Source of the DNA: Octopus vulgaris
Taxonomy: Eukaryota
Length of the DNA: 64,000 nt
NCBI GenBank assembly: GCA_951406725.2
Contig: OX597819.1
Coordinates: forward strand, 52,638,001-52,702,000
Direction: 5' to 3'
Part shown: piece by piece, positions 14,916 to 61,446 of the stretch
Layout: the number at the start of each line of letters is the position of its first letter
Numbering within the stretch: position 1 is the first letter of the stretch
Notes under the pieces: model-generated
What the model saw: only the letters and a program-made list of their open reading frames with translations
Told to the model about the DNA's origin: nothing
Databases searched by the model: none
Translations under genes and position numbers: made by a program

Positions 14916-15298
14916 TGTTGCTATTGCTGTTTGTTTGTTTGTTGCGCGAAGCGGTCTTTGTCCCAGTGGGAGAAGTCCGAAACGTGGTCCTTTGCTATTC
15001 GTAAGACCCGCAGAGGAGAAAGCAGGCCAACCCCCGACACCGAGAGCATCGACGGATGGATGAATGCGCATCCAGGCTCAGCGGTTGCGTAGGAAGTCGG
15101 GGACAAGAAACAGGAAGAAAAGAGTGAGAGAAAGTTGTAGCGAAAGAGTACGACAGGGGTTGCCACCACCCGCTGCCGGAGCCTCGTGGAGCTTTAGGTG
15201 TTTTCACTTGATAAACACACACAATGCCCGGTCTGGGAATCGAAATCGCGATCCTCCGACCCGCAAATCTGCCCTAACCACTGGGCCATTGCGCCTCC
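14916..15298 (-). mobile_element. tRNA-derived SINE family D, CpG-rich young-looking copy
   Basis: Minus-strand head GGAGGCGCAATGGCCCAGTGGTTAGGGCAG...TTTCGATTCCCAGACCGGGC; (CAA/AAAC)n tail at ~14916-14945. Homologous to 52612-52910 and 58621-58908. Confidence 0.85.
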
Positions 15299-15822
15299 AC
15301 TGCTGTTGCTGTGGTGGTGGTGGGGGTCGGAATATGACCTTTTACATTTTTCAATGTATTTATTGCCCACTTCCACTTCACCCCCGCCGCTTCTTAATAA
15401 AAACACACAACTCTGAACTACTCAACTGTAAACGGCTGTAATCCAAGTACTTTTATTTTCAGTTAATCAGAGCCACGTTATGTTACGCAATACAGAACGA
15501 ACGAGATAAAAAAAAAAAAAAGGAAACAAAAAAAAACAGAAACAAAGTTTGGAGTTTGTATGACAGTATGAGCTGTAATCCAGCTCCTTTAAAAAAAACC
15601 ACACCGACTCGTGTCTGTACCTCCACCCCGTTTCTCTCTCTCTCTCTCTCTCTCTCCGTGACTAAACAGCACGCATGTTATAATCTAAACATGCCAGTTG
15701 TGATTAATTTGTCTATACGGCATATTGTTTTTGAAATTGCAAAAACATGACCGTCTCCACTTTACTGGCCGCGCTATGTGGGTGTTATATACATTACGCG
15801 TGTGTATATGCTCAGGAGGGTG

Positions 15823-31140: not shown

Positions 31141-33524
31141 ACGATAAGTCAGAGTGGTACCCAATTGACGGAAAGATTTACCTTCCCTCATTTCAACACT
31201 AACAAACTTAAGCTAAGCACCAATCTAATCCTTATGTGACATTCTTCTTTCAATTTCTTTTTTTTAATTTATATTATTCACAAGAATTTCTCCAAACAGT
31301 CGCCATTTTTTCATTCTCATTCTATATCGTCAGAAAACATTGCTCTCTGATAATGAGTCCTGCTTGGAATGCTAGAATTTGACATCTCCTCTTCCTCATG
31401 ACATAGCAATTTACTCTACTTTTGAACAACATTAACTAAACACAACTGGCTTGACTTCATTACTGACAAATTCCAATAACTTAGGAAATATATGTTAAGC
31501 TGTTAAATGATCAAGAAGGCTGAGAGGGGAAACAATAGTGTTGAACAGGATGTAGAGCAGTAAGGATTTCTGTGTTAATTAGCCACATTAGGATGGAGAA
31601 AGAACAAATATAGTGGTAACATCACAGCACTGGTTGGATTAAACAAACCATTTATTAAAAGGAACTGGAAGAGATTGCCATAATTGTTTGCAGAGGATAC
31701 AACTCCATGGAAATCTGCCTTATTAAGAAGAGGAAGACTGTAGTAAACTAGAATTGTCTTTAGCTTCCTTTATAGGAAAAGGCCATATCCGTAGTTTAGA
31801 TTAATTACAGATTGGAGAGGTAGGAATGGAAAAGAAATACAAAAGCAATAAAAGCAGAGACAGCCTTCCTTGATAACTTAATACCAAAAAGAAAGCCTTT
31901 TCAAGGTTCTTCAACCTGTTTGATATAGCAGCTAAATCTCTCTCAAACAATTTCATAAGTCTTGAAAAAAACAAGGAGACATTGGACAATGTAGTCCTGG
32001 GTGTATAAAATAATGGTATGATCATGACCGGAATGTCTTTGATGATATCAGAGGTTAGCCTGATCAGGACCGACCTTGCAACTAAACAATAGCAATGACA
32101 ATTTAACTCATTTTATACCAAACTCTCCAAAACAGCCTCTAGTTCAATGATGTAAAATCTCCTGTTTTAAAATATTCATTCTAACATAATTTTATGTAAA
32201 ATCTTTTATTTGTTAAGTTACATTTCAGACACCGAACTGATAATGACAAAAGTTAGTTAATTTACAAAATGACATCTAAATCTGGATTATTTTCAAAGTT
32301 ACTAAAATGTCCATAGACAGACTGTTTCAATAGAAATATGAAGATAAAATATTCAATCCCTAAATTTAGTGATTTTGTATCTTAGACTAATAAATATAAT
32401 CTGCTTCCTAACTTACCTTCAACTTACTTTCCATGTTTCCATGTTTTTAGGCTACATGGGGGTATGTTTCATCAAGAATATGGTGATAAAACATTTAATC
32501 TCTTTCCAACCACATAGTTCCGGGTTCACCACTGCATAGTACCTTGGGCAAGTGTCTTATACTGTAGCATTGGGCTGACCAAAACCTTGTGAGTGGATTT
32601 CATAGAGGGAAGCTAAAAGAAGCCCATTGTGTGTGTGTGTGTGTGTGTATATCACTTGACAACCACTGTTGGTGTGTTTATGTCCCCACAGCTTAGCAGT
32701 TCAGTAAAAGGAGACCAACAGAATAAGTGCTGGGGTCGATTCATTTGATTAGAATATTCAAAGCAATGTCCCAAAAACACCAGTTTAATAATGATGAAGA
32801 ATTTTACTAAATTCTCAACTACTTTCAAAAGCTACAGTAACGAAGGTAGAGTATGTAAACAGAAATATGGTAACAAAAGGGTGAAAGTATATTTAACAAC
32901 TTCATGTGTTATTAAATCCCTAGAATGGCTTCTAAATAATGTAACTGCTTCTTTGCATATCCTCTCCAGATGAAATTTCTTTTCTCTCCTATACACAAAA
33001 CCAGCTCTATGAAACCTTAGGGAGTTGTGAATGTACGAACAAACAACAGAGACCACCAAAACTACACAAAACCTGTCTCAATAGTCAAATATTTTAACTT
33101 GTCGTACTTGTAAAATCAAGGCAGCTGGCAGTCTTCTTTCCATGGCTCTCTCTCTTAGTTAAATGTATTTATTTGAAGTAGTCAAGCATGTAAGTGAAAA
33201 AACAAGTCTTCCTACATATGCCATGTTGTATTGGATGTCGTGAAGAAATCTCAATTTTCCACAAGTGCATTGTATACCAGTAAATGGTTAAACACACACA
33301 CAAGCACCACACTCAAGAACACAAAAATCCTCACATAATATGAAACACTTCTGAATAAAGTGTTATATGAAATATGATACAACGGAAAGAATTATAATAA
33401 AGTCAGGAAAAGGCAATAAGCAGAAAAAAAAAATATCTCATGTAAGTATTTATATCTGTATATATTTGTGTGTGTGAGTGTGTGAGTTGTGAGTGTGTAA
33501 TAATACAATATCTGCCAATATTCT

Positions 33525-33726
33525 TGATATATATATATATAGATATACATATGAATACATATACATATATATACACACATATATATATACATGCATACAT
33601 ATATATATACATACACACACATATATATATACATGCATACACATATATATACATACACACACATATATATATACATGCATACACATATATATACATACAC
33701 ACACATATATATATACATGCATACAC

Positions 33727-33763
<37 letters not shown>

Positions 33764-34110
33764 TATACATCCATACATATATATATAAACATGCATATAC
33801 ATATGTATACACACACATATATACATGCATATACATATATATATACACATACATATATATATATATATACATATATACATGAATATACATATACATATAT
33901 ACGTACATACACATATACATACATATACATATATATACACATACATATATATATATATACATATATACATGAATATACATATACATATATACGTACATAC
34001 ACATATACATACATACACATATATATGTATATATATATATATACATATATACACATACATATATGCATATATACATACATATGCACATACATAGACACAA
34101 GCACACACAC
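33525..34110. repeat. Compound TA/CA microsatellite with higher-order repeat units
   Basis: ACATGCATACACATATATAT blocks and GAATATACATATACATATATACGTACATAC blocks recur in tandem. Confidence 0.9.
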
Positions 34111-35339
34111 AAATATATTTAGGTAAGAAGTGGGTTTTGTTTTTTTTTTTCTTACTTCTGATCCAACTATTTCAATTCAGAACAGAAAAAAATCCACCAA
34201 TGGGGGATTTAATTTCAATTAAATAGCTTTGATATTAAACAGAGAACTTAAAACAAGTATTTAAGAAAAAGAATGTAATGGCAATGCGGTAAGGTTGGGT
34301 TGAGAAGATGCACTGGAACCAAGAGGTCCCTGAGAGAGAGAGAGAGAGAGAGTGCGAGAGAGAAAACGCAGCCACCTCCTACATTAGTAGCACTAAATTA
34401 ACTAATAAAGTACTTCAGTTTGATGGTGATTTGATGGTGACTGAGGCTGGGAAATGCAGACGCAGATGGAAAAGAGGAAACCAAATACCAGAATAAATTA
34501 GATTCTTAAAGTAGAGACTAATTATAATTAAACATCCCAAAGAGGAAATAGATGTGAAGATATGTGTGTGTGTGTGTGTGCCACATGTTTGTTTAAGTGT
34601 GTTTATATGAATATAATACCCATGCATATATGTATGGCTCTATGTGTGCATGTATATATACATATATATATATACATACGTATAAACATATACATATATA
34701 TACACACACACACACACATATATATATATTTATATACAAATGTATATATACATATATACATGTGTATATATATATATTTATATGCATGGCTTAGTAGTTA
34801 GGGTGTTGTACACGTGATTGCAAGATCATGGGTTCGATTCCCAGACTGGGCGTAGCATTCTTGAGCAATGCACTCCATTTCACATTGCTCTGCAATCATT
34901 TCAACATCTGACACATGACACCCAGTTGCACCTGTACAGGTAATATCGATTTGATGGAGGGAGTGAGCTTATGTCTACGCAAACATCTGATCACAATAAA
35001 CAGATTATCTGTGTGGTTGTTGTTCGGTAAGATATTGTTCAACCCTCATACATTGCCTAACAACAGGAGATTCCATTATTATACATACATATATATATAT
35101 ATATACACACACACACATAAATTTCCTTTGTGGCACCACACTTATTTCTGTCTTTATTACTGATTTTGCACTATCTCTCTCTGGCCGGGTGACTTTGTAC
35201 CTTCTCTACAGTGAGACACCTGTTTCTGCCTCTCTGCCTCACTATCACCTTTCATCATCTGATACGAGATCACCTCCTGCAATTGCCCCTCTCCTGTCAA
35301 AAGATTTTTGTCTAGTAGGTTACTTGGTGACCCTGTCAG

Positions 35340-42294: not shown

Positions 42295-43069
42295 TTAAGA
42301 AATGCTAAGTTTGAGGAAGCGGAGGGGAGAGAGATTAAATACCCATACCTATCATGAGTCTTCATGGTCAGAACTGACTTAAGGTGCTACTTACTGAGGC
42401 GAGGGGGAAGGTAGTTGTTTTTAGCATCATTCAAACCATTACAATTAAAATGTCTTGAAGACCAATCCATAACATTTATTTATTTTTACATGCTATAACT
42501 TCCATATCACATAATCTGGAAGTTAAGCTTATAATCATTGTCCTCACAACCACCACCACCATCATCATCATCACTGTTACCATCACTCATTATTACCATC
42601 ACCACTGTAACCACCACCATTACCATCATCACCACTACAACTGTCATAATCACCACCACTACCATCACCACCACCATTATCACCATCATCCTCATTATAA
42701 TCGTCACCCTCATCATTGCTACTGCTGCTAATTTGAAGTCTGTACCAGTGTGGGTCGGTAACAAAAATAAAAGACTCAACCAACAGTAATCAACCACAAT
42801 AACAACCAGTATCATCATCGTGGTCGTCATAATCATGGCCATCATCGCCATCATAATCCTCAATCATCATCTGAGGAATAAAGGGGTTAATGCAAGGAGA
42901 CGTTTACTCATTAATAACATCATTGGACATTCTCTATTAAAAGACAGCTTTCGCATAGAAGCAGCATATTTTCCATGATAGCAGTGAAAACTGAAACTTA
43001 GTTGAAATTGAATTTCCATTTCATACATATGCATCCATATATATATGTATGTGTGTGTGTGTGTGTGTA

Positions 43070-43790
<721 letters not shown>

Positions 43791-46700
43791 ACACATAACT
43801 GTATACATAAATATATATATAAATATATATACACACACACACACATATAATGTACATATCCATTATATATATGTATGTATACATGTATGTCTGTACGTAT
43901 GTATCTATATATACATATATACACACACACACACACATATATATACATAGTCATATTATATAAATATATATGTATATATATATAATGTATATACAGAAGA
44001 CACATATATGTATATATGTATATGTGTGTGTGTATACATAAACACACACACACACACACACACACATATATGAAGGAATTCAATCAGTTAGCAGCAACAG
44101 AGAATTCTTGGGTTAGTAATTTCCTCCTATCAGCAGATAAAGAAGATAAAAGAAAAAGATCTTAAATCATCCATCAACACGTTTACTTCACTTCCCACCG
44201 AGAGCATTTGGTCAAGAAACGGCAAAGTTAGGCCAGAAATAAGTTCCATATCATTTAGTTACTTCCATTATTACAGCGAAAACTTTTTATCCATCAATGG
44301 CGCTCACATCAATATATTGTAGCATGATAGTCTTTGTTGCTAATAGCCAATATAGGTAATTGAGAGCGAGGAAAAGAGACAGACAGAGAGAGAGAAATGG
44401 GTGGTGAGAAGTAGAATGAAGTGTGTGTATGGGGAGAGAGAGAGAGAGAGAGAGAGGGATTTCAAATTTGCAAATAGTTAACCATTGTCCAATGAGGCAT
44501 TGTCAATAAGAATTTCTAACCATGAATAAATACTACACCTACTACTACTACAACTACTACTACTGCTACCACTACCACCATCGCCACCACCACTACAATG
44601 AAAACTATTAATACCACATCTTTAAAACTCAATAATATGTTGAAATGCAGGATATTGCCAAAGCTGGCAGTGAAAGCCTGGCCATAAGATAAATCATCAT
44701 CACCATCATCATCATCATCATTATTAGCATAGCTACCACCCACCACTGCCGCTGCTGCTGCCGCCACCATGGCCATCCATCATTATTACCATCATCATTA
44801 TTTCCTTTTAACATCTATGCTTCCATGCTCACATAGGTGGAATAGGTCAACCCTGTCAACAGTACAACAACAGTACTGAAGTGTAGTAACCAGTGAAAAG
44901 ATTTTATGGATGGGTGTCCTTCTTAATGCAAACCACTCTCTATTATATGTACATATACATGCCGGCATGTTTGCATATGTGTGTGTGTGCGCGCGCACAC
45001 ACATGCAAATAGGTGTATTAACACACACATACACACACACATGCATGCATACTTATACATAGATTATACGATAGAATTTATGAGGGAATTTATTATATTT
45101 TTAACATGAAATGAGTCAGTCATATTAGCTATGTAGTTAAATGACAGGACAGTTAACGACAGAGTTGTGAGTTCAAATGCAGCTACAGCCTATAAACATC
45201 TGCACATACACAGATTTTATGAGAGAATATATCACATTTTTAGCATGAAATGAGTCAGTTAAACTAGTCATGTGGTTAGATGACAGGACAGTTAACCAAA
45301 TAGTGCCAGAGTTCAAATCCAGCCATATCTTATATCTAGTGAAATCCTCTACCATAGTACAATTAAACAAGTTTCAAAACTCTTATAAAACTTGATATAA
45401 AGTTCTTTGTCTTTATATAATTCTTTTTTTTTTTTTACAAAAAACGGGAAAAAAAAATTTCTTTTTGATAACTTTTAGGAATCAAAATAGTCTTGATAAC
45501 TATTTTTAAATCTACAAGAGTAAGTCATGAATAAATACTAAACCAAGAATATTGCTATTATTACTACTATGAAAAGTATTACTGCCATCTTAAAGAGGAT
45601 GTCAAGAGGAAATGACCGTCTTGCCCTCATTACAAATTCACATACACATTAGCTTCTGACAACCAAACAAAATCACTTATGCAACATCTCATTTATTAAG
45701 AGAAGTAAACTTTAAAAATATATGGTGGGGAAGAACAGGCCAAAAAAAAAATAGAAAGAAAAAATTCCACATTTAAAAACAAACAAATAATAGCAACAAA
45801 ATAAATCAGAGGGATTTTGAGCTAATGAAGAAGCTACTCTGTGATGGCTCAATTGGTTAGAAAGACTAACCACATCAACTTCTAATCACTAAGAACCTGC
45901 ACTACCACCCCACCTACTTTTCATAGCTCCATCCCCCCTTGTTCCCTAGCATGAAGCTAACCCCATCCGTCCAGGGTTTGTAGTTCTGCAAGCTGCATAG
46001 TGCTGCATGGCAACCTCAATAGTGTGGGTGGCATGAATAAAGCACCCATTCCATGTTGTAAAGTGGTTGGCATTAGGAAGGGCATCCTGCCTTAGAAACC
46101 ATACTAAAAAAAAGAAACTGGACACATTGGATCCTGTCAAACTACCCAGCCCATACCAGCATGGAACACAGACATTAGATGATGGTGGTGGTGGTGGTGG
46201 TGGTAGTGGTGATGTATGTATGTGTGTGTATCTGACTGTCTGCCTGTCTATCTGTCACTGTGTCCTAGAGTTTGTGTTTATCTTCCCACCACTTGACAAC
46301 TGCTGCCAGTTTTGTTTATGTTGCTGTAACTTAGAAGTTTGGAAAAAGAAATTGATAAAATAAGTACCAGACTTCAAAAATATGCACTGGGGTCAAATCA
46401 TTCAACTAAAATCTGTCAAAGCAATGCTCTAGCATGGCCTTAATTCAGTGAGCGAAATGAGTAAAAAAAAAAAAAATTAAAGATACACAACACAGTGAAC
46501 CTAAATGAAAATGCATCTGCCTCTCACTAAATATTCTACTGAGTCAAGGCAGGAGCCTCAACATGGTTACATAACCTGTTAGAAATAGCAAGTATGGTTT
46601 GATAGTAAGTTTTATGCTTTCACTAATTGTTTTAAGTGTTCATGTCGTTGTGAGCAGTCATAAACCTCTTCTCAGGTCTCTCACTCTTGACCCAATGGAA

Positions 46701-52233: not shown

Positions 52234-52611
52234 TATACACACACACAGTCATAAATACAACACAATACATACATATATATCTATCTAATGTACATATATA
52301 AAAACATACACATGCATATCTATCTATATGCACAATAGATGTGCATATCTACCAACCTATCTAACAAATACATATGTGTGTGTGTAAAAGAGTTTTTTTT
52401 GAAAGAAAAGAAAATGTCTACATGTATGGTAATACTCAATGGAACAATGAGCCGCATGCTATCAGTGAAGGCAGAAGGGAGACAGACAAAATACATAATC
52501 CAAGCAATTCTATTTTTCATTGACAAATAATACCAGCATGGCAAAAGAGGAGCATCATAGATGATGATTCTTGCCTGCCTAGAAAATAACCTACACCTAA
52601 TCTAACCAAGT

Positions 52612-52910
52612 GGAGGCACATGGCCAAGTGGTTAGAGCAGCGGACTCGTGGTCGAGGGATTGTGGGTTCGAATCTCAGACCGGGCGATGTGTGTGCTTAT
52701 GAGCGAAACACCTAAGCTCCACGTGGCTCCAGCAGAAAGTAATGATGAACTTCTGCTGACTCTTTCGCCACAACTTTCTCTCACTCTTTCCACCTGCATC
52801 TTGCAGCTCACCTGCAACAGACCAGCATCCTGTCCAGGTGGGGAACCTATACGCCAAGAAAACCGGCCCTATGAACCAGGCGTGGCTCAAGAAGAAACAC
52901 ATAACAGCAA
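52612..52910 (+). mobile_element. SINE family D with ~13-bp TSD
   Basis: GGAGGCACATGGCCAAGTGGTTAGAGCAGCGG...GGTTCGAATCTC. TAATCTAACCAAG at 52598-52610 versus TAACCTAACCAAG at 52911-52923. Confidence 0.9.
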
Positions 52911-54947: not shown

Positions 54948-57098
54948 ATAAAATGACAGAATTCATTCAGTACATTTCAGGAAAGGCTTAATGCACCAAC
55001 ACTCTCGGGTGTAATGTAATCTACAATGCAAAATACTTGTAAAACAATAAGGTAAACATAGAAAGAAAAATCAACAGATGTGAATATGAAAAATAAGCAA
55101 TATAACTACAGCTGTAAAAAATGGAAACAAAGTTAATAAAAATCTTTAAAATAATAAAAATAAACTGTCCATTTTCAAAATTTTATTGCACAATGGTTCC
55201 CAAAGTATTTTCCTGTCACGATCCCCACACCCACAAACTCATTACCATTTCCCCATGCCATAGAAACCTATTAAAATGATTATTCAGAAAAGCAGTTTGC
55301 AAGATACTACAAAAGATAATAATCATTACCAATTACAATTAATTTCACTATTTATTCAAAATTAAATTACAACCAATTGGTTTAATTAATTTAACAGAAG
55401 TGATGAAATTGATCCAAAGAGACCAGTTTTCCAATCTGATAATCATCTAGTAACAGTCTTGTTATATCTCACATTTACAAAAATATTACTGCATTCACTA
55501 ATTTCATATTATAATGGATGATGAGACCATACCTCATCATAATTTTACACTCTTACAGACATAGATTTATCCTTGGGTGGTAGGCATTGGCTGCAGAGCC
55601 AACACACAGAACCTTTCACGACTTATCAATTCATGGCATCACCTACTCCAGATCCAATGCTTCTGATTGGAATTAGATTAATATAGTTTTCATATATGGT
55701 CATCAGACTACATTTTAGCACCCTAACCTATTACAGTCTATTGTTATATCATCATGGCTTTTTTTAAATATGTAATTTATTGAAGTTGTGTAGACATGTT
55801 TAGTGATTGTTGGGTTTGCAATCAATCATAAGGCATTGTGTCCTTGAGCAAGGCTCTTGATTACATGTTTGATCCAGTCTACTCAGATAAAAGTGAGTAA
55901 CAGGCACATGAGAGCAGCTGCTGCTGCTCTCTCTCCCCTTCTCTCACCAGTTATCACATCTTTGGTGTTTCACAGGGTCAAAAAGGAGAAAGCTAAAAAG
56001 GTCCATGTCTACTCACAACTACACAGACACCTAAAACAATCAGTAAAAGCCAAGTCCCTGCTACTACTAAATTATCCTTGTTTGTGAGTGATGGCTATGG
56101 AATCCCTTTATTTGTTCTCTTTATTAAAGAAGATACAAAAAATTAAGCACAAAACAAAACTAACAATCTTTTTTTAAAGTGGATGCTTCTATCAAAAAAT
56201 TCTATAGAGTAAAAGAATATTTAAAAACAAAAACAAAATATAAAACAGTATAAAAGAATAAAATCAAGAACATCTTTCTTTTCCACTTCTAAGATCAAAG
56301 CTAAAAACTAAAAGACCAAACACCTAAAACAACTTAACAAATGATCATTTTGAAAAAAATAAAATCAATTACATAAATAACCTTTCCTTTTTGAGATTAA
56401 AGCATTGTTTGAAACTTTAATGCATTATATAACAATTTACATTTAGTCAGTGTTAAAACTGGTACATATTAACTGATTTCAACTAAACAACTCTGACTCT
56501 ACAATTGTTGTAAGAAGCACAACAAATTGCCTGTCTTAACACTGCCATTTCATACTTGGGTACCTTAGTACATGTGTACCTTAGTACTTGGGTGCCTTTA
56601 GCAGAGTGCTCTGAATTGTAAACATTTTGGTTTCAAATTTTGGTACAAGGCCAGCAATTTCAGAGGATGGAGATAATTGACTGCATCAGCCCCAAAAACT
56701 GGTACTTATTTTATCGACCCCGAAAGGGTGAAAGGCAAAGTTGACCATGGCAGGATTTTAAGACAGCATTTTGTCTAGTGTGTTAATGATTTTGACAGCT
56801 TGGTGCCTTAATCATAGTAAACATTTTAACAAGATCTCTGGTTTCATCCCAAGCTCCCCACCCATTTTCATTTTTTTTTTTTATATCCTGCAGACCTTGG
56901 GATGTTCTAGCAGTGTACTGGGTATCAACCACATCAACCACCCACATCTGGAGGATCTTATAAAGGTTACAAGTATTGAATCCTGATCCCTTCTTTTCTT
57001 AATTTTTTTTTTTTTAGATTCCACTTTTAAACCAAAACATGGCTTGTTTTACCATTTATTTAAGGAACAACTTTAACAGCATTAGGTAAAAATTGGAG

Positions 57099-57213
57099 AC
57101 TTACCGCATATTCCAAAATTTAATGATGAAACATTTAAGAAGGGTTTTTTCATAAATCATGTACTTACCTACAATGAGAAAAGAGACGCAAGTGTGAAAA
57201 GCATGTTAATCAG
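57099..57213 (-). other. Recursive splice site (ratchet point) with 64-nt cryptic RS-exon
   Basis: Minus strand: CTGATTAAC (branch-like) ATGCTTTTCACACTTGCGTCTCTTTTCTCATTGTAG|GTAAGT, junction at 57169/57168. A second donor, GCG|GTAAGT, lies at 57105/57104. Confidence 0.65.
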
Positions 57214-57545
57214 TTATATATAAATAACATATTTATCAACATTATTTTAATGTCCATACAAATACACACACACACACACATATACTGGTAAGCTGCACCA
57301 GGTTCCAATCTGACTTGGCAAAGGTTCAAGGACAACAAGCCGTAGAAACCTTGCCAAATCAGACTGGAACCTGGTGCTACTCCCCAGCTTACCAGTTTTC
57401 AGTGAAACCGTCCAACTCATGCCAGCATGGAAAACAAACATTAAATGATGATGATGATATAAATGCATATTATACATACATTTAAATATAGGAAAAAATT
57501 GAAAATGGAGACAAACGCTCAAGATGTTATTAATTCATTTATACC

Positions 57546-57645
57546 TTCATATCATCAACATATGTTTCGATGGATGCATTCAAAATAAATCTGACAGAAT
57601 GAATAATGTAGAGCAATGTATCAATCTCATCAGGGAGGATATAAA
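57546..57645 (-). ncRNA. Type I hammerhead ribozyme motif (GUU triplet)
   Basis: Stem I UUUAUAUCCUC/GAUGAUAUGAA, C-CUGAUGA (core at 57633-57627), long stem II, GAAAC-AUAU-GUU. Confidence 0.7.
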
Positions 57646-58525
57646 TAAGTGCTCATCAATTAGATATTTTAACAGACATAAGAAACTCCAATATACACAT
57701 ATACATACATGTACACACATACATACACACACCTACAAACACACACATGCATAAACATATGTACACATACTTACATACATACACATACATAAACACATGC
57801 ACACATACATAAATATAGATGCATATACATACAGGAACACCTACAAACCTACACACATATATGGAAAGTGAAGTTGTGAAGGGAAAGCTAGAAATTTGAA
57901 AATGGTGTTGAGGAAACAGATGCCATAGGGCAAGAGAAGAAGAAAAGGAAGAAAGAGGGAATGAAAGAACAAAGTTAAAGGAGAAAGGGAGGTACAAGCA
58001 AAAGAGTATAGATGATAGATGGAAAGAAAAGATGAAGGGAAGAATATGGGTTATGAGAAGCAAGAATAAAGGTAAGTTGCAGAAATTATTACTTGATGAG
58101 GGGGTAGATATTATTTTAAAAAAGCAAGAGTGTTTTTTCCAATGTAAACACCTGTAAACTCATTTATTAAAGGTGCTTACCATATGGTTAGAAAAGAAGA
58201 TAGATAGTTGCTTGTCTATACAAAGAGGACAAAAAGATTTCCCTTTGTCATGGGGGAATGATCTGGAAAAATTTTCCAGTCTAAAGAAAAGAGTTTATTA
58301 GTCTTTAAGGTGCCAAATTAGCTTACTAGGTCCTGTAGAATTATGCTTATGACTGTATTTAAAAGTTGAAAGATGGTTCGTGATACGGCATTTCAACTCC
58401 GTAGAAGATAATCCAATATAAAAGAATTCTTTAGATTGGTAAATGGCATTTTTAATACTGTAATTTCCATTGAGGACACAAGTTTGTATATATGTTTATG
58501 CATGTGTGCATGGGTGTGTGTACAC

Positions 58526-58580
<55 letters not shown>

Positions 58581-58620
58581 CATGTGCATGGGTGTGTGTA
58601 CGTGTATATATATATATAAT

Positions 58621-58907
58621 GTTGTTTGTTCATAAGGGTTCATAAGCGCCGGTTTCCTGGTTTCCTTGGTGTATAGGTTCCCCACATGGACGGGATGCCA
58701 GTCCATCGCAGGTGATCTGCAAGATGCAGGAAAGAGTGAGAGAAAGTTGTGGTGAAAGAGTCAGCAGAAGTTTGCCATTACCTTCTGCCGGAACCGCGTG
58801 AAGCTTAGGTGTTTCACTCATAAACACACACATTGCCCGGTCTGAGATTCGAACCTGCGATCCCTCGACAGTGAGTCCGCTGCTCTAACCACTATGCCAT
58901 GTGCCTC

Positions 58908-58908
<1 letters not shown>
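58621..58908 (-). mobile_element. SINE family D
   Basis: Reverse complement of 52612-52910; lies within a (TA)n tract. Confidence 0.9.
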
Positions 58909-58950
<42 letters not shown>

Positions 58951-59010
58951 GCATCACATATACTGGAGTCTCTTATATCAGTTAAAATATCTAACTGATG
59001 AGCACTGTTC

Positions 59011-59110
59011 TTTATATCCTCCCTGATGAGATTGATGCATTATTCTACATTATTCATCGTGTCGGATGTATTTTGAATGCATCCATCGAAACATATGTCG
59101 ATGATATGAA
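59011..59110 (+). ncRNA. Type I hammerhead ribozyme motif (GUC triplet)
   Basis: Stem I 59011-59021/59100-59110, CUGAUGA 59023-59029, stem II 59030-59041/59076-59087, GAAA 59088-59091, stem III AC-AUAU-GU, predicted cleavage after C59099. Confidence 0.8.
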
Positions 59111-59317
59111 GATATAAATGATTAAATAACAGCTTGAGCATTTGTCTCCATTTTCAATATTTTCTATGCTATCCTAAATATGTCTCACTTCTTCCCAGAA
59201 TTAACTCCCACACTAGTGTGATCACTGATTCCTGGGACACTTAAGCAACATCTGGCTGCCTTGCAATTATTCCCTTGGATCTTTCCTATAAATTGAACAC
59301 TCATACATTTAAATATG

Positions 59318-59498
59318 CACGTAAAAGCACCCACTACACTCTTGGAGTGGTTGGTGTTAGGAAGGGCATCCAGCTGTAGAAACTTTGCCAGATCAGATTG
59401 GAGCCTGGTGCAGCCATCTGCTTCGCCAGACCTCAGTCAAATTGTCCAACCCATGCTAGCATGGAAAGCAGACGTTAAACGATGATGACAATGATGAT
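59318..59498 (+). mobile_element. Family C retroposon 3' part
   Basis: CACGTAAAAGCACCCACTACACTC...CCATGCTAGCATGGAAAGCAGACGTTAAACGATGATG. Confidence 0.8.
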
Positions 59499-61446
59499 AC
59501 ACCTATACATATATATCTACACACACACATGCATACCTACATGTACATTCACTTACAAATGTATAAACATATAGATACATTCATACAAAGACATACATAC
59601 ATGCACACGCTCACTGACATATGTTCATACACAGATGATAAGACAGGTGGTTGCTAATACAAACAATTCAAACTGCAAGCAAATGGTGAACATCCCAAAT
59701 AACCATAACATCTGTTATAAACAATGGTACACTTCTCTCTCCCTCACACACAACACATGCACGTGCACAAACACACACACACAACTTTAAGATGCTGTCA
59801 TAGTACAACTATCTGTAGATATGTATCAAACTTAAGATGAGAAAAATCTCAAGTACAGGACTGCCTTGAGAGTGAAACAGGAAAAAGTCAAGCACTTTGA
59901 AAGATCAGGAGATAAATTTGCAACACCACTCATGTGTTACTACAAGATGTTATTGTGTCTTTTGTTTAAATTTCACTAGAATATTCCTCCTTGGAAGTGG
60001 CAACTGCCTTTCAAGAACTATGAGAAGGACAATATCATTATAAAGTCATTGTTGTCGTCATTTTACAATTTGCTTCCAATGCTGGCATGGGTTGGACAGT
60101 TAGACAGGATCCACTGGGTTGGAGAACCGGATCTTGCCTTAATGTTCCAGGCAGTGAGCAGCAGAATCATTAGTATGTCAGACAAAGCTAAGCATTTTGT
60201 CTATCTTTATGTTCTGAGTTCAAATTCCGCCATGGTCGACTTTGCCTTTCATCCTTTCAGAGTTGATAAAATAAGTACCAGTCACGTACTGGGGTTGATG
60301 TAACTGACCTACCCCTTCCCCTGAACTTGCTAGTCTTGTGCCAAAATTTGAAACTGGTGTTCCACTGTTAGTATGGTTTCTTTGATTGAATGCCCTTCTT
60401 AATGACGACCACTTTACAGAGAGTACAGGATGCTTTTTCCAAATCACCAGCACTAGTGATATTGTCTTGCTAAGAGAATGAAAAAAAAAACCTACAAAAC
60501 ATCGGATCCAATTTAGATAAAGTTCAATCACCATGATGATCATCATCATTGAACTAAGGTTTATATTTCTAAATATTGGGGTGGTGGTGTTGTAGATGAA
60601 GTGTATCAATCTTGGTTAGATTAAGACCCACAAATCTAAGTGCTCCAATATAAGTAATTCAAAATATGGACATTGATAAATCATAAAATAAATCTTTCCC
60701 GTCATATAAACTACTTTGAATATTATTTTAGCAAGTTTAAAGTGATTTCTTTTGTACCATAAACCATTTACCATTTTTCTTGATGCTTTAAGCATGTTTA
60801 TTTTACTTCATGGTTAATCCACCACTGGTATCAATGTACACAACAGAGAGTGATTTACTTCCAATAACAAAGGGCTTGAAGAAGAACAATAGTGTAGGTA
60901 AACTTTCTAAGGCTGCCTTGAAATGGGTTGGTTATAGTTTACAACTGTTTGAACCTTCAAAAACTTTTAATTGGGTAGTAAACATAATCAAACAGCAGAG
61001 GTCTAGAAGCATTTTGCTTTTGTCTCAAGATATGTCAGGTACTGGCTCATCTGTCTTAAAAACAATATGTAAAATTACACTGAATAAGGTACACATAGAA
61101 AGCCCTGGTGATAGTGCCACATAAAAAGCACTCGGTACACTCTGTTAAGTGGCTGTCATTAGGATGGGCATCCAGCTGTAGTCACCAAGCCAAAACAGAC
61201 AATGGAACCTTGTGCAGCTCCTGGCCCTGCCAGCTCCTGTCAAGCCATCGAACCCATGCCAGCATGGAAAATGGCTATTAAATGATGATGATGATGAATG
61301 ATGACTAGAAGAAAAAGGATGGAATGGAAATGATTTTGTTCATAGACCTGCTTACTCAGGGCCACCCTGGGGCTAAACAGTAACATTATGATCAGCATTA
61401 TTCATATTAGTACAGGGAAAAGACACATATGTGCGTGAATGTAGAC

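Follow-up and report, generated by a model that had tools for sequence, protein, structure and literature searches.

An inverted pair of hammerhead stretches is very probably one 5′-truncated insertion of a Hydra-clade Penelope-like element

We found that two hammerhead-bearing stretches lying in inverted orientation are very probably the outward-facing 3′ ends of one dead, 5′-truncated, inverted insertion (57490-59301) from a multicopy family of Hydra-clade Penelope-like elements (PLEs). In this insertion, the long left arm carries a decayed endonuclease frame, and the right arm is short and inverted. A preliminary description had offered a 'PLE pLTR' or the 'inverted ends of one composite element' among its readings, and these gained support from the endonuclease remnant, a flanking 15-nt repeat and the abutting junction of the arms. 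The outcome comes close to the 'ordinary PLE relic' which that description had set against its own reading, but it was reached via one insertion and not by chance proximity.

Layout of the inverted pair

The window (the whole stretch of DNA that was analysed, 64 kb) is AT-rich and of animal type, with a GC fraction of 0.25-0.46 per 2 kb, and is crowded with microsatellites and several dispersed repeat families, the repeats lying in both orientations. At least four dispersed families are present in many copies each, at 66-88% identity and in both orientations, and inverted pairs that could fold into duplex RNA are therefore frequent across the whole window. At 43000-43950 and 33450-34120 there are very long (TA)n and TA/CA tracts, of several hundred bases each.

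We used blastn within the window to align the two copies. The left copy (57492-57695, minus strand) matched the right copy (58959-59164, plus strand) at 89.3% identity over 206 nt (E 7e-75), in agreement with the likeness of roughly 90% first estimated; the reported spacer of 1263 nt and the TA/TG repeats adjoining the start of both copies were likewise borne out. No third copy of the hammerhead stretch was found in the window, and there was no other match below E 0.03. The copies differ by 20 substitutions and 3 gap positions in 210 columns; 12 of the 20 substitutions are transitions, four of which adjoin CpG. The near-identical boundaries described earlier did not hold up, as the right copy extends in family sequence to about 59301-59308, approximately 135 nt past the end of the left copy.

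On the left, minus-strand arm, the endonuclease frame is followed by a pyrimidine-rich stretch (57870-58114, 78% pyrimidine on the element strand) and then by a degenerate TG/TA repeat tract (57696-57869) lying between the frame and the hammerhead; the first is likely 3′ UTR and the second likely the element's own 3′ UTR. This arm closes with a 3′ terminal region of the pLTR type (57490-57695), which holds the hammerhead and ends 67 nt past its cut site. The plus-strand right arm starts in the same repeat tract, in element sense and with an expanded (TA)n (58488-58620), the rest of which, again (TA)n, lies at 58912-58958. It continues through its own hammerhead-bearing 3′ terminal region (58959-59166, from the blastn pair and the core scan) into a 3′ extension of about 135 nt present on this arm only (59167-59301). 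Contigs of other loci align through the extension, which is likely an optional 'tail'. The inner boundary common to both copies is the point at which homology enters the repeat tract. This tract seems to belong to the element, which would account for the microsatellite next to the start of either copy.

The SINEs flanking the pair share one orientation, so the pair's symmetry does not reach outward. The SINE to the left of the insertion carries a short inverted duplication at its 5′ side (57286-57386), a hairpin of about 30 pairs with a weak miRNA-model score; this hairpin is likely an inverted SINE 5′ end.

A decayed endonuclease in the spacer

The preliminary description saw no ORF between the copies. 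We found there a decayed C-terminal GIY-YIG endonuclease of a Hydra-clade PLE (58115-58486, minus strand), using phmmer, alignment and tblastn. The frame, read from 58486 to 58115, contains three in-frame stops, a short compensated frameshift and a small deletion before YIG, and it is 5′-truncated inside the Zn-finger linker, at the last cysteine. The translation of 58115-58480 with X at the three stops (P0001) was searched with phmmer and matched 428 proteins among 1.84 billion at E<=0.001, nine of them at E<=1e-10, with the best at 7.8e-18. The closest matches were unnamed, similarly decayed pieces from Logan assemblies, and the longer ones had a reverse transcriptase in front, with YRDD in P0060 and P0093. 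Among the 150 matches listed of these 428, CxxC..E was present in 130, CxH in 120, a CxC-x(4-7)-C linker in 49 and YRDD in two. P0158, an 813-aa cluster mate of the match P0060, has DKT, RWR, YRDD, a CxCx5C linker, CxxC and CxH, and its last domain aligned to P0001 at 32% over 125 aa (E 6e-14). The match at rank 7 (P0008), a cadherin-repeat protein, was set aside as spurious.

P0001 itself bears the Hydra-clade endonuclease marks, CxxC at residue 84 and CxH at residue 111, both aligned with those of the homologues. By the definition of the clade in PMC8557442, CxxC and CxH late in the endonuclease replace the usual CCHH arrangement, and section 11 of that paper gives the clade canonical hammerheads and (TA)n targets along with CxxC and CxH, and places it in molluscs. 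The motifs of P0158 (DKT, YRDD, CxCx5C, CxxC and CxH) are the marks named there; RWK is a further motif of the clade. In tblastn, 12 of 12 homologues landed on 58106-58519, and 157 homologues gave no match elsewhere in the window at E 0.001. No PLE-type reverse transcriptase was found in the window by tblastn of the homologues, as is expected of a 5′-truncated copy.

Pfam gave no match for the remnant and also missed P0158 (even at E 0.1) and 19 of the 20 homologues tested. A word-indexed protein search with the endonuclease piece returned nothing, unlike phmmer; the Atlas lead was a cluster with PF01541 (GIY-YIG) on 21% of its members. Because Pfam and Rfam both miss this Hydra-clade family, the spacer looked empty. 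Applied to 109 of 355 open frames (from 44092 on), Pfam gave two weak matches below the cut-off and no host exon.

The endonuclease frame reads toward the left hammerhead on the same strand, 482 nt away. Since it lies in sense and leads into this hammerhead, the left copy is best read as the 3′ end of a 5′-truncated coding element. A read-through protein test of the pyrimidine-rich UTR gave no alignment past the endonuclease for the closest matches. Endonuclease and hammerhead likely belong to one element, judging by their order, strand and distance in the only single copy seen with both.

Flanking direct repeat, junction and SINE

A perfect 15-nt direct repeat (57475-57489 and 59302-59316, both plus strand, 15/15 identical) was found around the pair. 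Its two copies lie outside the outer ends, and the word is absent from the rest of the 64-kb window. A shared run of at least 15 nt was obtained for 19 of 99,203 random pairs of AT-rich 40-nt windows, in a test that was run after the match had been noticed. The positions of the repeat agree with ends that were obtained independently, namely the stop of the arm alignment (57488-57492) and the stop of family homology (59305-59308). The target is rich in AT but is not a pure (TA)n tract. As no empty site was seen, the repeat is a candidate target-site duplication (TSD) only.

The arms meet head-to-head at 58484-58490, in a junction with no palindrome. Endonuclease homology reaches 58486-58489 in tblastn, and a 19-nt word at the start of the right arm (58490-58508, plus strand) recurs in the left tract (57742-57760, minus strand) and nowhere else in the window. 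With the homology stopping at 58486-58489 and the word running from 58490, the right arm most likely starts within the repeat tract, abutting the 5′ end of the left arm.

A SINE with a tRNA-like head (58621-58911, minus strand) matches 52609-52864 at 87% over 256 nt and 15116-15301 at 78% over 190 nt. TA runs lie on both sides of it, and it likely entered the (TA)n of the right arm later. In its head we see what we take to be A-box and B-box likeness, judged by eye; ARAGORN found no tRNA gene in the window. One tRNA-headed SINE was observed in three copies (52609-52864, 15104-15301 and 58659-58911), and the copy at 52609 appears, by eye, to have a short flanking direct repeat of its own.

The hammerhead ribozymes

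We scanned both strands of the 64 kb with a descriptor consisting of CUGANGA, a paired stem II and GAAA, and obtained two hammerhead-core matches, one per copy. Rfam found no hammerhead at gathering score over the window, and over 56000-61000 a cut-off of E 10 let in only miRNA matches driven by microsatellites, again with no hammerhead. The hammerhead call rests on the descriptor scan and the stem counts.

The type I core (CUGANGA, GAAA, NUH) is intact in both copies. In the right copy (plus strand), the 5′ strand of stem I (59012-59022) leads into CUGAUGA (59023-59029), and stem II is formed by 59030-59041 with 59076-59087, enclosing a 34-nt inner loop. GAAA (59088-59091) and a palindromic 8-nt stem III/loop (59091-59098) follow, stem III being 2 bp, and the predicted cut falls after 59099, at a GUC triplet. 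Stem I of this copy has 9 of 10 pairs only with one C left unpaired beside the core. The left hammerhead (minus strand) has CUGAUGA at 57633-57627 and its cleavage-site base at 57557, in a GUU triplet. Stem I, CUGAUGA and GAAAC were first described as unchanged between the copies. CUGAUGA and GAAAC are indeed identical, but the ribozyme as a whole is not: the triplets differ (59099 against 57557), and stem II of the left copy has lost a pair to a G-to-A change at 57619 (10 of 12 paired, against 11 of 12 on the right). GUU is common among the Hydra hammerheads listed in File S2 of PMC8557442, so the left GUU is not in itself a dead site.

When the hammerhead shape was forced on the monomers, the predicted folds lay 8.8 (right) and 15.3 (left) kcal/mol above the minimum. 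Hammerheads with a short palindromic helix III are described in PLEs in PMC4209133 as weak in vitro and dimer-dependent. With its short palindromic stem III, the ribozyme here would be of this weak, dimer-dependent PLE type, and its monomer fold is predicted to be unfavourable.

Other candidates were rejected. One was a second CUGAUGA, located upstream in the right copy (58995) and peculiar to it, with T there in 12/12 and 15/15 contigs and in the left copy, and for an open frame antisense to the left hammerhead (57503-57697) no homologue was found. The 20-nt core word had no match in viral contigs and one in metagenome contigs (L001); this was a chance match, inside a 1974-aa microbial ORF, with nothing else in common with the window. 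That open frame (L001 236-6160, plus strand) has a likely signal peptide and C-terminal membrane anchor and is unrelated to the hammerhead pair.

The family in sequencing runs

The stretch is contained in sequencing runs of five organisms. We compared 58952-59316 with the contigs of four runs at 80% likeness. Matching contigs numbered 386 in X1 and 379 in X12 (both DNA runs), 36 in X10 and five in X16 (both guessed to be RNA); these are contig counts, not copy numbers. The family is multicopy, with related copies in the runs of two organisms. Summed contig depth is highest at the two halves of the ribozyme core and falls off at the loop of stem II.

Family homology ends at 59305-59308 in five of the eight X1 pieces listed, with a range of 59294-59311 over the four runs. 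A further set of family contigs departs at about 59155-59157, close to the end of the left copy, into A/CA-rich letters. As contigs leave at two places, 3′ ends in the family seem to be of two kinds, short and long, approximately 135 nt apart, and one of each is present here. Among the 24 loose ends of other copies listed, out of 261, some run into TA/CA repeats.

Seven joints were listed across the four runs, of which five are skips, two are strand changes (one contig per DNA run) and none goes back. The strand changes are opposite-strand joints inside the family at other loci, and they were found in both DNA runs. Both DNA runs also contain, in one contig each, a skip of 128-131 nt between about 59130 and 59260, whose ends are not GT..AG; it is perhaps an internally deleted subfamily common to organisms A and E.

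The arms appear closer to each other than to most of the family: their mutual likeness is 89-90%, and the 16 long DNA pieces listed reach 81-88%. This comparison of arms with family is biased in that 29 of 828 pieces were listed, the longest ones and mostly from the 3′ part. Over short stretches, 66 of the 386 X1 contigs are at least 95% alike to the right arm. At ten listed sites (from 40 of 200 variant rows), at least three quarters of X1 depth departs from the right arm; in six of these the left arm carries the family letter, and many differences are therefore private to the right arm. At 58989 both arms have A, where 11 of 12 X1 and 14 of 15 X12 contigs have G.

Two independent insertions of the same family, 1.3 kb apart in opposite orientation and helped by a common TA-rich preference, would also place two hammerheads in this arrangement. 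The family is multicopy by the X1 and X12 counts, Hydra-clade elements target (TA)n (PMC8557442), the arms are about 10% different, and TA tracts abound in the window along with other repeat families that lie in either orientation. We nevertheless regard two insertions as unlikely: one direct repeat brackets both outer ends, none having been noticed around either arm alone in an unsystematic look; the arms abut within a few bases; they have in common, at 58989, a letter that is rare in the family; and neither blastn nor tblastn of the 157 homologues found another family piece in the remaining 62 kb.

The preliminary description had also suggested a short non-autonomous, retrozyme-like element, in which case the 208-nt units would be retrozyme monomers making small circular RNAs. 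Their size, type I hammerhead and short palindromic stem III do fit the metazoan retrozymes of PMC7229834, retrozymes are argued to derive from pLTRs (10.64898/2026.07.22.740005), and family contigs are present in the two runs guessed to be RNA. This reading is very unlikely in our judgement, since the window contains the inverted pair only and no tandem array, the left unit runs on from the coding remnant as the 3′ terminus of a longer coding element, and copies of the family vary on their 5′ side and end in two different ways on the 3′ side. None of the seven listed joints in the four runs goes back, as tandem or circular joints would, which counts weakly because contigs drop rare forms.

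Predicted RNA duplex between the arms

A transcript of either strand had been proposed to contain a ribozyme and a duplex of about 200 bp. The duplex is present in the sequence: the arm-arm pairing, of 186-191 pairs with uninterrupted runs of 31-53 pairs, is predicted at -264 and -283 kcal/mol, whereas each arm by itself reaches -30 to -46. The ribozyme part of the proposal fared less well. Since the 3′ ends face outward, the antisense arm would be transcribed before the sense hammerhead on either strand, and with the antisense arm made first, pairing between the arms is predicted to trap the ribozyme in any read-through RNA. The duplex could be editable like any inverted repeat, if the locus is transcribed. 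The two runs guessed to be RNA contain family contigs, and no listed piece spans the whole stretch.

That the host has retained the pair to supply double-stranded RNA for A-to-I editing or Dicer is hardly credible: the long predicted duplex with its uninterrupted runs and the presence of the stretch in runs of five organisms would suit it, but the 20 differences between the copies resemble neutral decay (12 transitions, four beside CpG), there is no host exon nearby (109/355 open frames, none above the Pfam cut-off), and the changes in X10 (A>G 17, T>C 20, C>T 21) compare with 14-16, 17-21 and 27-28 in the DNA runs, counts that are blurred by family copies.

Proposed route of formation

Given one insertion, we lean slightly towards a route with two primers. 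The GIY-YIG endonuclease of the element would cut AT-rich DNA with a stagger of about 15 nt, and both 3′ overhangs would prime reverse transcription at the 3′ terminal region of the element RNA, with either two RNAs or the two pLTRs of one tandem RNA as template. Both cDNAs would stop early, one in the endonuclease linker and the other in the UTR repeat tract. The two truncated cDNAs would then be joined head-to-head, and fill-in would yield the 15-nt duplication. A start approximately 135 nt further out on one arm would produce the tail. The SINE would have entered the (TA)n of the right arm afterwards, and the arms would have drifted about 10% apart.

Purified PLE protein was reported in PMC11167929 to cut and extend both strands of AT-rich DNA; reverse transcription there starts at two internal sites, and their spacing equals the genomic tail. 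The alternative to two primers is inversion by self-priming on an antisense template, which PMC3846280 proposes from palindromes at the junctions. The junctions of that paper are palindromic, whereas the one here is not.

A further-reaching version of the two-primer route is possible, though we are doubtful of it. The family would be an undescribed and abundant one of the Hydra clade, with two reverse transcription start points about 135 nt apart (three to four times the length of known tails) and a hammerhead with an unusually long stem II, and the locus would cleanly preserve the outcome of a single 15-nt staggered cut whose two overhangs both primed cDNA synthesis. If this is true, a two-primer origin of PLE inversions could be tested by genome-wide counts of tails and TSDs.

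Comparison with known elements

One dead transposon copy in a known layout has little significance alone. It does add a Hydra-clade family that both Pfam and Rfam missed, and it offers a tidy example for how PLEs form head-to-head inversions and one-sided tails, named as unresolved in PMC8557442. Inverted hammerhead pairs in such genomes should be read first as PLE ends and not as paired ribozyme RNAs. Our literature searches found no description of the family, which may already have a name in Repbase, Dfam or the octopus library of PMC13282606.

Non-LTR retrozymes, as described in PMC7229834 and 10.64898/2026.07.22.740005, resemble the pair in their type I hammerhead and in a unit length of a few hundred bases. 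They are non-coding tandem repeats yielding circular RNA, whereas here an inverted pair is attached to a coding remnant, and no tandem joint was seen. The paired minimal hammerheads of Schistosoma PLEs (PMC4209133) are also close pairs on opposite strands, with a long helix II and a palindromic helix III, and that paper reads them as truncated PLEs. They lie 100-700 bp apart, compared with about 1.4 kb here with a SINE between, and the hammerheads here have no extra base between positions 9 and 10.1, unlike those of Schistosoma.

The Pen2a/Pen2 elements of Adineta vaga (PMC3846280) share more of the layout. There, too, inverted pLTRs stand head-to-head at the ends within a TSD (8-10 bp), with an optional tail on one of them. 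The clade is a different one, the tail is 31 bp and the junctions have palindromes; the AT-rich 15-nt repeat here is longer than the TSDs of that paper.

Hydra-1_Obim, a cephalopod element with a (TA)n preference in the supplement of PMC8557442, has in common with the insertion its clade and its endonuclease pattern (by eye, from the rows of Fig. S7). Its hammerhead differs from those here in sequence and stems, and the 11-nt stem II word of the ribozyme here is absent from the whole supplement of that paper. Set apart by the hammerhead and by this word, the family appears distinct from Hydra-1_Obim.

Another Hydra-clade element of PMC8557442, Penelope-13_HM, likewise has a C-terminal GIY-YIG with CxxC and CxH, a hammerhead near the 3′ end and a TA-rich setting. 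According to the supplement of that paper, its 5′ end bears a 5′-truncated inverted copy and both strands have a hammerhead, as here, and the legend of Fig. 2 describes an inverted 5′-truncated copy together with a one-sided tail. Stem II is 12 bp with a 34-nt loop here, against 3-7 bp with loops of 3-10 nt in the Hydra rows of File S2; the UTR here holds a long repeat tract, unlike the Hydra-clade elements as that paper presents them; and the one-sided tail is approximately 135 nt long, against the published 30-40 nt. As the inverted layout has already been published for PLEs, the finding is an ordinary one, and the long tail and the long stem II are its only departures from published members.
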